43,124 bases of DNA from a virus (taxonomy: Duplodnaviria; Heunggongvirae; Uroviricota; Caudoviricetes). Made by a program: the position numbers. The stretch's first letter is position 1. Each line of letters begins with the position of its first letter. Shown here piece after piece: positions 18,001-24,000 of the stretch. The stretch lies in IMG/VR virus record IMGVR_UViG_2531839664_000026, positions 1 through 43,124 of that record; one strand, 5' to 3'.

Positions 18001-21000
18001 CAATCAGTACATTACTGCTGTGACTCCAACACGGCAGTTTTTTTATTGAACAGATTCCAGTTTCTTCCACCATCGCACCGGATGGGCGACCATGAGGGGA
18101 GAACGCCGCGCTCCGTTTACGCGGTAAACCCCGGTGTGTATCGTTTTTGATTATCCCCGCACACTCTCGCAGAGGAGTCTCCCTGTCGGGCTGCGGTCTC
18201 TGTTAATGCAGGAATACGGCGACAATACCGCGCATGGATAATAAGGTCGCTCAACACACTGGCTGTAATTCAGCGGATACCATTCGGCATTTATCAGTAT
18301 TCATCACGCACTCAACGGTGAATTCTTCATGCGTGGCATTCACTTCATATGTTCGTGAATAACATTCAGTGCATTTACCTCTGAACACCTCTTCAAGCAG
18401 AACACGGCCATGTTGCAAAACACGGAACGGAATTGTTCCCTGAAAAGGTTTTACCGTTACCTGTAATTTCTTCATACATCCTCCGGATAATAAAAAGCCT
18501 GCTTAGTACACTGAGTGCGGATATAGTCCTGTGCCCCTTCCACCTGCTTCTGCATTGTCATCAATCGTTCTCTGAGGATGAAATAATCCCGTTCAGCGGT
18601 GTCTGCCAGTCGGGGGCCGGTTGCATTATCCACGCCGGAGGTGCCGGTGGCTTCACGCACGGTACCGGGGCAGGTGGCGTTGATCCGCAGGCGCTTACGA
18701 CCAGCGGCAACATCAGCGCGCAGAGTTTCATTTTCAGCTCTCGCATCGGCTAATTCCCTCGAGTATCTGGCATCAAGTGCAGCAACATCACGCTGGCGCT
18801 GCTGCATATCAGTAATGGTTGCATTTGCCAGCTCCAGCTCACTGACTTTTTTATCGCGCTGCTCTTTGTAGGTTATGGCGTTATCACGGTAATGATTCAG
18901 CCCCAGACTAAGCGCACCACAGGCCACCAGCAGGGCAATGATGACCACGCACAGTACGCGGTTCATTTCACCACCAGCGTATCTGACCAATGAAATAACC
19001 GGAAGCCATAATCACAAACACCAGCCAGATAAGGATGAACTTCCAGGTGGATAATTTTTCAGCCATCATTCGAATCTCCCGAATCAGTTTGCTAAAATCA
19101 AACACACTTTCTCCTTTGACTTTTCCGGAGTCAGGAAACACAAAACCCCGCTTGCGGCCAACAAACGGGGTTTTACTTTTATTCACTTAGTTTTTGCCAG
19201 TTCGCAGGATTTCGTGTTATCCGCCCGTGTGAGCAAACCGCATTTTTCAGCAAAATATTCTGCTTATCTGTCAATTCCCCAGCACGCCAGCGCGCTCTCC
19301 TGGTCACGCCGTGAGACCTGACCGTAGCAGTTGTTTGAGCGAATACGGCAGTCTCTGCCACCGTCCTTAATCCACCAGCGAATCGCCTCGCATGCTCCCC
19401 TGCGGTCACCAGCATTAATCCGTCTGTAAAACGTCGACGGGAAACACTTACCGGGGCCAATGTTGTACGGACAGAATGACGCAATACCCGCTTTCTGGGG
19501 TTCGGTCAGCGGCACTCTGATATTGCGCTCCACCCACTCCAGCGCCTTATCACGTTCAATGGCGTTAACCTGGTCGCACTTTTCCTTCGACAACTTCATA
19601 CCCGGGACGACAGGTTTACCATCCACCAGGATGGCACCGCGGCAGATGGTCCAGATACCCGCACCATCACGGTATGCCGTGGTGTGGTTACCTTCTTTTT
19701 CGTCAAGAAACTGGTCGAGGATTTCAGGCGCAGACGCCCCTGCACCAATCAGCGCCAGAACGGCAGCCGACAGGCCGTATCTGATTTTTGCGTTCATGGA
19801 TATTTATCAGGGTTTATCGATTTCAAATCCCTGGATATGTTAAGTCTTCAGGCCAGCGGTGGAGTCTTCAGAGAACCAGTAATTATTCCCGGTAGTTTTC
19901 CTCTGTAGGTTATCAACACATCCTGCGCCTCTAAAATGATGGGCCGCTTTTCCGGCAACGGACCATCCCCTTCACATAACCCGGCAGCAACATCCATGAA
20001 AAACTGCTTCGCCTGCTTTTTCGCCTCAGCTTCGTAAAACTCCAGCGTGGCACCTTCAGTACGGTCAAGACTAATCGCCACATCTGGCAACAACAGTGAC
20101 GGATACCCACCAATTTCCAGTGCCACAGTAACAGTAATCTTATCCGGGTAATTATTTATCCCTTTAACACCCAGTTCGTATTTTTTCTTCATCGCTTTAC
20201 TCTCCCCGCGCCGCCTTACGCTTATCTTCTTTAATCTTGAAATAAAGGTTTGTCAGATACGTCAGCAGGCCAAACAGCAGACTCCCCAGCACACCTATCG
20301 CCACCCACTGGGACGGAGAGACTTTGTCCAGCAGCTGCAGTAACCAGTATCCCGTCCCACGCTGACGTGGTGTATGACACACCTGTTGTGTATTTTTTCC
20401 ATCTGATGTATGTCTCCGTCACCGCCGACAGGAAATGAAAGTAAAGAAAAACAAAAAAGCCGCCAGTGTCACCCACTGACGGCCAACGCCGGGAGCCGTG
20501 ATTATGGCATTCAGGCTCTGCTAAAAATGCCAGATAACATTCCGGCCTCCCCTGATTCAGGTTATAAATGACACAATATCTTGACAACATCCGTCACTGT
20601 CTGTCAGAAAATGTACTGCCATATAGAAGCAACATGTGAAGTACATCTATCCTTTTGAGCCAGCACCTCTCCACCGAAAGTCAGTGCTGGCTGTTTTTTT
20701 CCTTAATAAGGCATCTGTAACTGAAACAATCCGCATATTGATAATATATTGACAGGCATCATTGCTGTCTGTGAAAAATAAGTCTCTACAAACTGAGGTG
20801 TACTGGCAATAGCGGACACTACCATTTGTTCTTTTTTTAAGCAGCCATCTGATGATATTTTTCCCTGAAGGCTGCCGGGGAGATATTCCCCAGACGAGAG
20901 TGACGACGCTGACGATTGTAGAAAATCTCAATGTATTCCCGTATTACTGAGATGGCTTCATCCCGGTTATTAAAACGATAGTGGCTCAGGCTCTCATTTT

Positions 21001-24000
21001 TCAGCGTTCCCCAGAAGCTTTCCATCGGAGCGTTGTCGTAACAGTTACCTTTACGCGACATTGATGTTTTCAGACCAAACTGCACCTGTATGACCCGGTA
21101 ATCGTATGCGCAGTACTGTGAACCTCGATCAGAGTGGTGGATTAGCCCGGCAGGTGGGCGCTGGCTCCTGAGCGCCATAAACAGAGCTTTACCTGTCAGC
21201 TCTTTTGTCATGCGCTCTCCCATGGCGTAGCCGACAATTTCGCACGTATAAACATCTTTGATGCCAGCGAGGTACAACCATCCCTCCTGTGTGGCAACAT
21301 ACGTCAGGTCCGCCACCCAGACCTGATTTGGTGCTGTAGGAGCGAACGTCTGGTTCAGCAGATTTGGCGCAACTGGCAGATTGTGGTTCGAGTTCGTAGT
21401 CGCTCTGAACTTGCGTTTCTGCTTACAGCGTAGCCTTAGCTCCTTACGAAGACGTGCCAGTCGGTCACGACCAACGATGATGCCATTCTCTGCCAGCTCC
21501 GTCTGGAGCCGCCGGGTTCCATATGTTTCGCGAGTGCGGATATGTGCCACCTTAATCTCCAGTTTTAGCCGCTCATCACTTTGTTTTCTGTCTGAGGGTT
21601 CATGCTGTACCCAGTTGTAATAACCGCTCCTGGATACACCAAATACCTGACACATCGCTTCAATGGGAAATTGTTGTCGCCATTGTTCGATTAACGCGTA
21701 TTTTTCAGCGACTCCTGTGCAAAATACGCTGTTGCTTTTTTTAATATATCTCGCTCAAGGCGAGCTTCATTTAACGCCTTACGCAGTTGCAGAATTTCAG
21801 ATTCCAGTTCAGCCACCGTGCGGGAACCAGGAGTACCGAGCCCTTTTCTGGCGGCGGTAACCCATTGTCCTAAAGTGCCTTCAGGAAGAGATAATCGGGA
21901 AGCGCCTTCACTGATCGAAAGTTGATTTTCAAGAACCGTTCTGACAGCTTCGGCTTTGAACTCTTTAGAGTAACGTTGGGTTTTTCTGCTCATTATTAGC
22001 TCCTTCTGATGCCATTCTATTTCAGGAAGGAGTGTCCGTTAAACTCAGGCTACCTCAAACATATAAGGCCTTTTAGCCAGCGTCTTCTTTTTCAGGTCAG
22101 TCGCTGGCTTTTTTATTATGCTGCCGGTGCATTTATCTCCAGCATCAGACTTTCTATCTCAACGCCATACGCTGCATTTTTTGTAACATCCGTCAGCGTC
22201 AGCGCATTCAGTCCCAGTGTCAGACTGTCTTTTATAACCTGGAATGCCGGGCCAGCCACTCCATTCAGTTTCGGAGTAACCGTGGCACTGCCGGCGGTGA
22301 ACACCAGCTCCAGCGTCTGCCAGTCGTTACCGTAGTCGCCGAACTCCCCCAGCTTCGTGTTCCCGGCTTTCCTGTGATGCATCAGATTCACTCTGCCGTC
22401 AGTGGTCTGAGTGAAGTACGACATCAGGAACGGATTACCGGTACCCGTCATCGCCACACCATCAGGAACGGGAGCATCCGTATACAGATAAATCCCCAGC
22501 CCGAACTGATTGTTGGTCAGTGCGCCTGACAGGCGGAACTTACAGGTCAGTCTGCCGCCCTGTGTCAGCAGGGTAATTGCGTCATCCACCGGATGCGCCA
22601 GGGACCAGGTTTTATTGCTCTGCTTGGTGATCTTAAATACACCATCTGCCAGCTGAATTCCGCCATCCTTAATAGTCCAGCCCTGCGTAGCAGCCTCTCC
22701 GTCTGCCGGCAGCAGGGAGACTGTGCGGACGGATGTTTCGCTATCAGACGGCCCCGATGGCGTATCGCCGCCGGGCGAGGGGTTGATTTCCGGTGCCTTA
22801 CCACTGATGAAGGCTGAGGTGCGCCCGGCTGCGTTCAGAATAGCGGTTGCCAGGCGATCCGAAATAATGCTCCTGCGCGCCCATGAACTAAAATGTGTCG
22901 GGCGGTTTGATGATACCTGGTTTCCATTCGTTCTCGATGCCGCACCGTAATATCCTGATGCCGGAATATCTGGATCTTCTGCCGGCACATTAGTGGCGGT
23001 ATTGACGCCGTTACCGTCTGTCATGAACGGCACAAAATAAACGCCCTCACTCTCCCTGTTTTTGTACGCCCCGTAAATGGTGTTGTACTGCGTGCCGTAG
23101 GTGTTTTTCCAGTAATACGTCGTGTCACCACAAATCCACGGCACATTTACAGCACTGCCACCATGACACTGCGCGTTAAACACAGTGAGGTCAGCACGAA
23201 ACTGCTTCAGCATGGCTGTAAACAGCGCAGGTTGCTGTGCGTAGGTGGCGGCGCTCATGTCAAACTCTCCCTGCATCCAGCACACCGCCAGCAACACATT
23301 TTTCGGGTTCTTCTGTAATGCAGCTTTGGTGCGCACAATCAGATCCTGATATAACGGCTTACCCACACCCCAGCGCGCCGAATCCTGGCTGGCCCCCGTG
23401 TCCGCACTGAATGTCCCCTCCGCGCCCTGGGTAAATGCCGAACCACCACGACAGCATGGTACCAGCAGGATCCCCGCGTTATTCGGGATATACGGGAGCA
23501 GTTTTTTGGCAATATGTAACCCCTGGCCGACACAGCCGTACTGCCCTTTGCTCAGGTCTGCCTTCGGATGATTCAGCGTACTCATATCCTGCACATCATG
23601 CAGGCAGTGGTCGGCCGGAATAATATCGTTATATCTGCAGGCAGTCCCACCGGCGTCACTGTACTGCGGCGCGCCAGCTGTTTAATGCGCGGATCCGGAG
23701 CATCGTATGAATCCGGCAGCGGAAGCCCTTCACCGTAAGCCATGGCATTGGACTGCCCGGCCAGTACGATGACGTAGTACCAATCCGGCTCAGATGAAGG
23801 GCCGACCGGTGGCTCTCCTTCAATAGCCACCGCCTGCATCAGTGTGTACGGCGTAATGGCAACCGGTCCGCCGTATGGCTGCCAGCCCTCTTTCAGTTTG
23901 TGTGTCAGCTTTTCCGCAAGGTCTGACGGCGACGCCGCCCTGACAACATCATAATGTTTAAATGTCATTATTCCTCCCGGCCGGGATAGTGTATTAAATC

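Follow-up and report, generated by a model that had tools for sequence, protein, structure and literature searches.

The window, by which we mean the whole 43,124-nucleotide stretch of viral DNA analysed here, contains one copy of IS600 (20794-22057, transposase on the minus strand). Judged from its sequence, this is an ordinary, full-length and intact insertion element of the IS3 family. With high confidence, we explain the region as an intact IS600 that an ancestor of Escherichia coli O121:H19 acquired in one of its prophages, within the spacer separating nanS-p from the holin gene, with a probably small effect on late gene expression. The insertion at this site is already known and is annotated in public complete genomes.

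Identity and anatomy of the element

IS600, first described in Shigella sonnei, occurs abundantly in Shigella as well as in non-O157 STEC. The 1264 bp of the window element were matched over their full length at 99.9% in every record among the matches listed for the E. coli collection. At least 80% of the IS600 query was covered in 1,750 records, representing 1,614 of the 5,426 complete E. coli genomes, and with these matches a chance similarity can be dismissed. The matches listed are annotated as 'IS3-like element IS600 family transposase'. Both chromosomal and plasmid copies annotated as IS600 in E. coli match the element, and the matching plasmid records number 890, including 140 from Shigella. 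The name IS600 is thus the one that RefSeq/PGAP gives to near-identical copies. By ISfinder convention, a copy is named as the same element above 95% nucleotide identity to the reference; the 99.9% found here applies to copies named by RefSeq/PGAP, not to the ISfinder entry.

Both ends of the element read TGAGGT (TGAGGT...ACCTCA), in agreement with the TGAGG ends of the original prediction. A repeat search and reading of the ends placed the left inverted repeat, TGAGGTAGCCTGAGTTTAACGGACACT, at 22031-22057 (minus strand) and the right inverted repeat at 20794-20820 (minus strand). The repeats are 27 nt long and imperfect, as had been proposed, with 19 of 27 positions complementary when aligned. 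The left repeat overlaps a promoter-like site (TTAACG-17-TAGAAT, 22042-22014), a match at chance level for the region. On either side the element is bordered by AAC, read directly from the sequence at 20791-20793 and 22058-22060. The span initially given, 20781-22060, ends correctly on the last base of the right duplication; its start falls 10 nt before the left duplication and has to be moved to 20791. The length of 1264 bp, the imperfect 5'-TG...CA-3' repeats and the 3-bp duplication lie within the ranges of the IS3 family (about 1.2-1.55 kb and 3-4 bp, respectively).

The transposase is encoded in two overlapping open frames, as expected for this family. orfA (21691-21993, minus strand) encodes 100 amino acids with an HTH_Tnp_1 domain and has an AGGAG ribosome-binding site ahead of it. 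The orfB frame (minus strand), which is -1 relative to orfA, stays open between 21754 and the stop at 20837. The A7G slippery run that had been pointed out earlier (A AAA AAA G) was found at 21735-21742 on the minus strand; in the frame of orfA it reads TTA AAA AAA GCA. This run is the predicted site of a programmed -1 frameshift, and RefSeq labels the same gene 'programmed frameshift'. Six nucleotides past the run and ahead of the orfA stop, a hairpin (21696-21729, minus strand) likely acts as the frameshift stimulator. It has 9 bp (12-nt arms with 92% complementarity and a 10-nt gap in the repeat finder), and its fold, at -14 kcal/mol and z = -1.6, is weak on its own. Joined at the A7G run, the two frames would yield an OrfAB protein of 385 amino acids, in which Pfam recognises HTH_Tnp_1 (1.9e-23), HTH_21 and rve (2.7e-25). 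orfB scores 332.8 bits against NCBIfam transpos_IS3 (2.8e-99; cut-off 160). The catalytic set D229, D289, E325 and K332 has the usual DD(35)E-K spacing, with the lysine seven residues after the glutamate. An HTH in OrfA and an rve-type DDE domain in OrfB are typical of the IS3 family. IS911, IS3 and IS2, which serve as studied models of the family, are alike in all these respects: besides OrfA they produce OrfAB, through a -1 frameshift at an A-rich heptamer that is followed by a structure, and they combine a DDE transposase of rve fold with TG...CA ends and 3-4 bp duplications. With full length, both ends, both frames and the DDE triad present, the original prediction of an intact IS3-family element is borne out.

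Known IS600 has the same 1264-bp length, inverted repeats, orfA/orfB arrangement with programmed frameshift and 3-bp target duplication. The sole difference from the common copy, which is present in about 1,600 complete E. coli genomes, is a single base at 21084 (minus strand), where GTG replaces GAG and leads to E304V in OrfAB. This residue is not catalytic; it falls within the catalytic core, between D289 and E325. The change could be a sequencing error. Among the best matches listed, all of which stand at 99.9%, no copy identical at every base was found that would trace the donor.

Empty site and inheritance

When the empty site was reconstructed, it gave one unbroken alignment, at 99.1-99.5%, with phage 434 and with the Stx1a prophages listed. 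At the junction, the sequence of phage 434 is CTACAAACATATAAGG, in which AAC occurs once, and many Stx1a prophages likewise have a single AAC, which is the outcome that the original prediction had proposed to look for in related prophages. The AAC target duplication is genuine, as these empty sites prove. Among the loci retrieved, eight of nine distinct full-length IS600 copies have 3-bp duplications. We looked for a target consensus in these eight sites and found none that was convincing; TGT follows right after the duplication in four of them.

The IS600 copy in O121:H19 Stx2a phages was considered as the same insertion and rejected. It occupies a different site elsewhere in that phage and is flanked by the duplication GAC. 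The match to this Stx2a-phage copy extended 7 and 11 nt beyond the ends of the element, and the flanks of that copy agree with the site described here in 12 of 15 positions.

The window corresponds to the first part of contig AEZX02000013.1, listed as E. coli O121:H19 strain 5.0959 (PMC3359367). Nine complete genomes carry IS600 at the same base and in the same orientation, with identical flanks and junctions; where the name of a genome gives a serotype, it is O121 or O121:H19. On this sequence comparison, the insertion is inherited within the O121:H19 lineage, and since it is common to the nine genomes, it is older than their divergence. The insertion had been called recent, which holds in a relative sense only. 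We also considered an independent insertion at the same site and rejected it, because the flanks match those of finished O121:H19 genomes exactly and the source strain belongs to this serotype as well.

Strain RM8352 is an example of a complete O121:H19 genome. From 20433 to 22334, the window differs from it solely at 21084, and its prophage (NZ_CP028110.1, transposase WP_085948186.1) shares the insertion point, the orientation, the AAC duplication and the flanks. The RM8352 prophage differs by two further IS3-family insertions and by deletions in lysis and morphogenesis genes, whereas the window has a lysis module of another type, with a DUF1327 gene and a 177-aa lysozyme, and a patch of clustered differences in nanS-p.

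Position in the late gene block

The element lies between nanS-p and the holin gene, inside the minus-strand late gene block, as originally placed. nanS-p (22116-23968, minus strand) encodes a SASA-family sialate O-acetylesterase. Its stop ends at 22116 and IS600 at 22057, leaving 58 nt, exactly the distance first stated. In the window, a 1-nt difference at 23648 splits nanS-p into ORFs of 128 and 492 amino acids; other 1-nt differences, which like this one may not be real, are present at 20358-20391 in the holin gene and at 16141 in the terminase gene. Homopolymers are under-called in many places of this draft assembly, and apparent pseudogenes around IS600 in it are not to be trusted. In the other direction, the start codon of a class II (S21-type) holin gene (20197-20402, minus strand) is found 391 nt downstream of IS600. 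About 20 kb of minus-strand late genes lie downstream of the element, covering holin, endolysin, Rz, terminase, capsid and tail.

Between IS600 and the holin gene, the late strand carries an intrinsic-terminator-like hairpin of 11 pairs followed by a T-run (20458-20484, minus strand), and the phage 434 record labels the homologous site a terminator. The hairpin had been described as tR'-like. Its terminator-like character stands; the tR' label does not, as tR' is expected after pR' near Q. In lambda and Stx phages, tR' follows pR' just downstream of Q. Here, the antiterminator Q gene (28565-28921, minus strand; Pfam Phage_antitermQ, E = 2.5e-45) is located 6.5 kb upstream of IS600 in the direction of transcription, with a terminator-like site close by at 28560-28543. 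One would expect the late promoter directly downstream of Q and not beside IS600, where it had been assumed to adjoin the element. Promoter-like matches around IS600 (20150-22250) were at chance level, with 3 found against 2.4 expected. A scan of 23900-28950 for pR' returned 12 matches against 10.2 expected and did not pinpoint it. Searches for described RNA elements gave no match at positions 20400-22200 and nothing credible in the uninterrupted phage 434 spacer (best E = 0.2, eukaryotic families).

Alternative readings

Late transcripts that start downstream of Q must run through IS600. This raises the question whether the insertion is strongly polar, so that lysis and morphogenesis genes are uncoupled from the late promoter and the prophage is locked in. 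The 20 kb of late genes downstream would all be exposed to such an effect. Furthermore, the RM8352 prophage is further decayed, with its two additional IS3-family insertions and with truncated lysozyme, terminase and tail genes, which fits a prophage no longer under selection; its decay can also be explained by those other insertions themselves. According to one paper (PMC10042803), induction-dependent production of toxin may be lost in an O26 Stx1 phage through an IS600 located upstream of q, and this suggested case implies that IS600 insertions in phage operons can matter. In the window, however, IS600 has the same orientation as the late operon, no minus-strand terminator-like site is predicted inside it, and the translated frames of orfA and orfAB would limit the access of Rho. 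Late transcription is Q-antiterminated, and Q-modified polymerase reads through terminators; the native one at 20484-20458, which is present in phage 434 too, would be among them. Phage 434 is taken as lytically competent, and its late RNA polymerase as terminator-resistant. Co-orientation, the lack of a predicted late-strand terminator and Q antitermination together make strong polarity unlikely, and the effect of IS600 on lysis and structural gene expression is expected to be small.

Two further readings concern the element itself. A multicopy repeat may be misplaced in a draft contig, and the present assembly has clear homopolymer errors; IS600 is amplified in O121:H19, with 27 copies in strain 51104 (PMC9397093). 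Nonetheless, nine independently finished genomes contain exactly the same two junctions in the same orientation, and the 3-bp duplication is perfect, so that an assembly artefact is hardly conceivable and the insertion is to be read as inherited. It is less far-fetched, and still quite improbable, that the copy is an inactive relic which can no longer transpose alone. E304V is a non-synonymous change in the catalytic core and is absent from the best matches listed. It is, however, the only such change; the ends, both frames, the slippery site and the DDE-K residues are all intact, and other IS600 copies in the genome could supply transposase in trans anyway.

Proposed course of events and significance

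In our model, an IS600 copy transposed into the 450-nt nanS-p/holin spacer of a lambdoid, stx-less prophage in the O121:H19 ancestor and duplicated the target trinucleotide AAC. Its predicted products are OrfA and, by way of the programmed -1 frameshift at the A7G run, the OrfAB DDE transposase. Movement by copy-out/paste-in via a circular intermediate, together with a junction promoter, is assumed for IS600 by analogy with IS911, IS2 and IS3. Excision of IS600 is helped by IEE (PMC9397093), and the insertion could be reversible by this route.

The strand of the spacer antisense to the late genes contains two diverged tandem units. Each begins with a TTGACA...CTGTCTGT...AAAAT box, after which come an AGCCAGC/GCTGGCT hairpin and a T-run, and in the second unit IS600 separates the box from the hairpin. 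Independent IS600 insertions are present in other STEC lineages at two more positions of the same interval. It is conceivable, and in our view a long shot, that the spacer is more than a passive landing site and comprises candidate small antisense transcription units or a preferred IS600 target. Were the units real small-RNA genes or the spacer a preferred target, insertion and IEE-driven excision might form a reversible switch that controls either a regulatory RNA of the prophage or the output of its late genes.

Taken together, IS600 has long been known, and the importance of this copy beyond correct annotation is slight. The insertion is a marker of this prophage in the O121:H19 lineage, IEE could in principle excise it, and it represents one more case of IS-driven decay, possibly modulation, of the STEC prophage pool.

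An intact IS600 copy between nanS-p and the holin gene

The element between nanS-p and the holin gene of this lambdoid prophage is an ordinary IS600 insertion (IS3 family), which is already annotated and not new. It spans 1264 bp (20794-22057, coding strand minus) and is directly flanked on both sides by AAC target-site copies (20791-20793 and 22058-22060). The original prediction had set the limits at 20781-22060; the right end holds, whereas the left coordinate was 10 nt too early. Both ends carry TGAGGT, and the terminal 27 nt form inverted repeats that match at 19 of 27 positions. 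Exactly 58 nt separate the element from the nanS-p stop codon, which ends at 22116.

On the minus strand, orfA (21691-21993, 100 aa) has an AGGAG ribosome-binding site in front of it. The orfB frame stays open from 21754 until its stop codon at 20837 and lies in the -1 frame relative to orfA. Their overlap contains an A7G slippery run (21735-21742, minus), which the orfA frame reads as TTA AAA AAA GCA. A hairpin starts 6 nt after this run, with the orfA stop codon beyond it. The repeat finder reports 12-nt arms at 92%, and folding predicts a 9-bp stem of -14 kcal/mol (z = -1.6). A -1 slip on the A-run would yield a predicted 385-aa OrfAB with HTH_Tnp_1, HTH_21 and rve domains, the catalytic residues D229, D289 and E325, and K332 seven residues past the glutamate. 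OrfB alone matches NCBIfam transpos_IS3 with 332.8 bits (cut-off 160). The ends, imperfect repeats, frames, slippery run, AAC flanks and nanS-p spacing are thus all as originally described.

Over its full 1264 bp, the element is 99.9% identical to E. coli chromosome and plasmid copies. At a query coverage of at least 80%, it matches 1,750 records from 1,614 of 5,426 complete E. coli genomes, and the matches listed are annotated as 'IS3-like element IS600 family transposase'. Matches also occur in 890 records of the plasmid collection, including 140 Shigella records. The window holds a single IS600 copy. The only base that distinguishes it from four other fetched copies lies at 21084 and results in E304V, outside the catalytic residues.

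Target duplication and inheritance

An empty site was reconstructed by joining 400 nt from either side of the element with a single AAC. It aligns unbroken with phage 434 (99.5%; junction gtctctacaaacatataaggcc) and with the listed Stx1a prophages and others (99.1%). Of 34 phage records with a match, 28 span 80% or more of this site. Among the loci fetched in this analysis, 3-bp direct repeats flank eight of nine distinct full-length IS600 copies, so the size of the duplication is typical for IS600.

By exact-protein look-up, the window corresponds to positions 1-43124 of contig AEZX02000013.1 (assembly GCA_000194395.2), and accession AEZX is listed as O121:H19 strain 5.0959 in PMC3359367. Nine complete genomes match IS600 with its 400-nt flanks in one piece, at the identical site and in the identical orientation; where a serotype is named, it is O121 or O121:H19. 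These finished genomes rule out misassembly of a multicopy repeat. Strain RM8352, a complete O121 genome, aligns continuously over 20197-31462. The alignment has 87 differing columns, almost all of them grouped in two patches, one in the holin gene and one inside nanS-p (22598-23520). The IS substitution at 21084 is the single difference from 20433 to 22334, and no difference was found in the alignment of 23650-31462. The common site and the near-identity to RM8352 therefore indicate that the insertion was inherited from a common O121:H19 ancestor. The original description as 'recent' is apt only insofar as the copy shows hardly any divergence. IS600 is known to have multiplied in O121:H19; strain 51104 has 27 copies (PMC9397093).

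Nearly 70 of the 87 columns are packed into the 0.9-kb nanS-p patch, a pattern that suggests gene conversion, with nanS-p paralogues of different prophages as partners.

Many single-base homopolymer under-calls are present in the window compared with close relatives. The large terminase gene is split by T7 instead of T8 at 16141 and nanS-p by a 1-nt difference at 23648, and the holin gene has shortened G runs within its first 45 nt. Differences of 1-3 nt occur at 16141, 16483-16525, 17201-17241, 20358-20391 and 23648, most of them in homopolymer runs. They split the large terminase, holin and nanS-p genes, and they probably reflect errors of the draft assembly, not true pseudogenes. As the under-calls resemble draft sequencing errors, caution is warranted over apparent pseudogenes and possibly over E304V. 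At 17290, a deletion of 10 nt between ACCTCCGG repeats looks genuine.

Spacer units and other IS600 sites

On its plus strand, antisense to the late genes, the nanS-p/holin spacer contains two tandem units that have diverged from each other (20578-20700, and 20747-20793 plus 22061-22115), the second of which is split by IS600. In each, an AATAT-TTGACA...CTGTCTGT...AAAAT box precedes an AGCCAGC-loop-GCTGGCT hairpin with its T-run. The phage 434 record annotates the hairpins of these units as terminators, and the Rfam search gave no family for the units.

Other STEC lineages carry independent IS600 insertions in the same nanS-p/holin interval. One (locus L004, 3276-4539) is at a position corresponding to window 20668/20669 and has duplicated AGG; another (locus L003, 6655-7920) is inside the nanS-p 3' end (about window 22308-22314) and has duplicated GCT. 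Both share one orientation; opposite-orientation cases could not be joined by the search used. In the O121:H19 Stx2a phage LC616037.1, IS600 lies in a different region (3508-4771 of the fetched locus, GAC duplicated), and its flanks agree with the studied site at 12 of 15 positions (TACA-[A/G]AC-AT..AAGG). No clear target consensus emerged from the eight IS600 sites compared. Given the independent landings and the tandem units, the interval might be a preferred IS600 target or a source of small antisense RNAs, both with low probability.

Expected consequences for late transcription

Every large ORF from Q (28565-28921; Pfam Phage_antitermQ, E = 2.5e-45) to the tail genes lies on the minus strand, which places IS600 within the late gene block, as originally proposed. 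Downstream of Q follow a DNA methylase gene, two tRNA genes, a terB-like gene, a DUF3927 gene, nanS-p and IS600, and then the holin, DUF1327, lysozyme, Rz, HNH, terminase and capsid genes. No stx gene is present in the window.

Two Rfam families exceed their gathering score in the stretch from the DUF3927 gene to nanS-p: the anti-GcvB sRNA AgvB (24116-24177, plus; 96.5 bits) and STnc100 (24178-24367, minus; 148 bits). Between Q and the DNA methylase gene, two overlapping ORFs run opposite to the late genes (27091-28017 and 28004-28552, plus; 308 and 182 aa). They gave no match in a Pfam search, are also present in RM8352, and could form a moron or defence cassette. A 433-aa ORF near the integrase gene (41907-43124) has a weak CHAT-domain match (39642-40943, minus; E = 2.4e-6).

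The late promoter of lambdoid phages lies just downstream of Q, and Q sits 6.5 kb upstream of IS600. Promoter-like matches near the element occur only at chance level, so the late promoter that the original prediction placed beside it is not supported. The hairpin ahead of the holin gene (20484-20458, late strand, minus; 11 pairs, then a T-run) is real and terminator-like. Its counterpart is annotated as a terminator in phage 434, but nothing points to tR'. In two further spacer hairpins (about 20671-20700 and 22075-22115) the T-run is on the plus strand, and neither is expected to stop late transcription.

A strongly polar insertion is unlikely. In its favour, one paper suggests that an IS600 copy upstream of q may have cost one O26 strain its induction-dependent Stx1 production (PMC10042803), and the RM8352 version of the prophage shows further decay by other IS insertions. 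However, IS600 points in the direction of the late operon, and our scan revealed no minus-strand terminator-like site inside it. Lambdoid phages transcribe their late genes with a Q-modified, terminator-resistant polymerase. This enzyme would already have to pass the native terminator ahead of the holin gene, which is also present in phage 434. With the IS600 frames presumably translated as well, we infer that little polarity on the late genes is to be expected. The IS-excision enhancer IEE helps to excise IS600 (PMC9397093), and the insertion could be reversible where the host is iee-positive.
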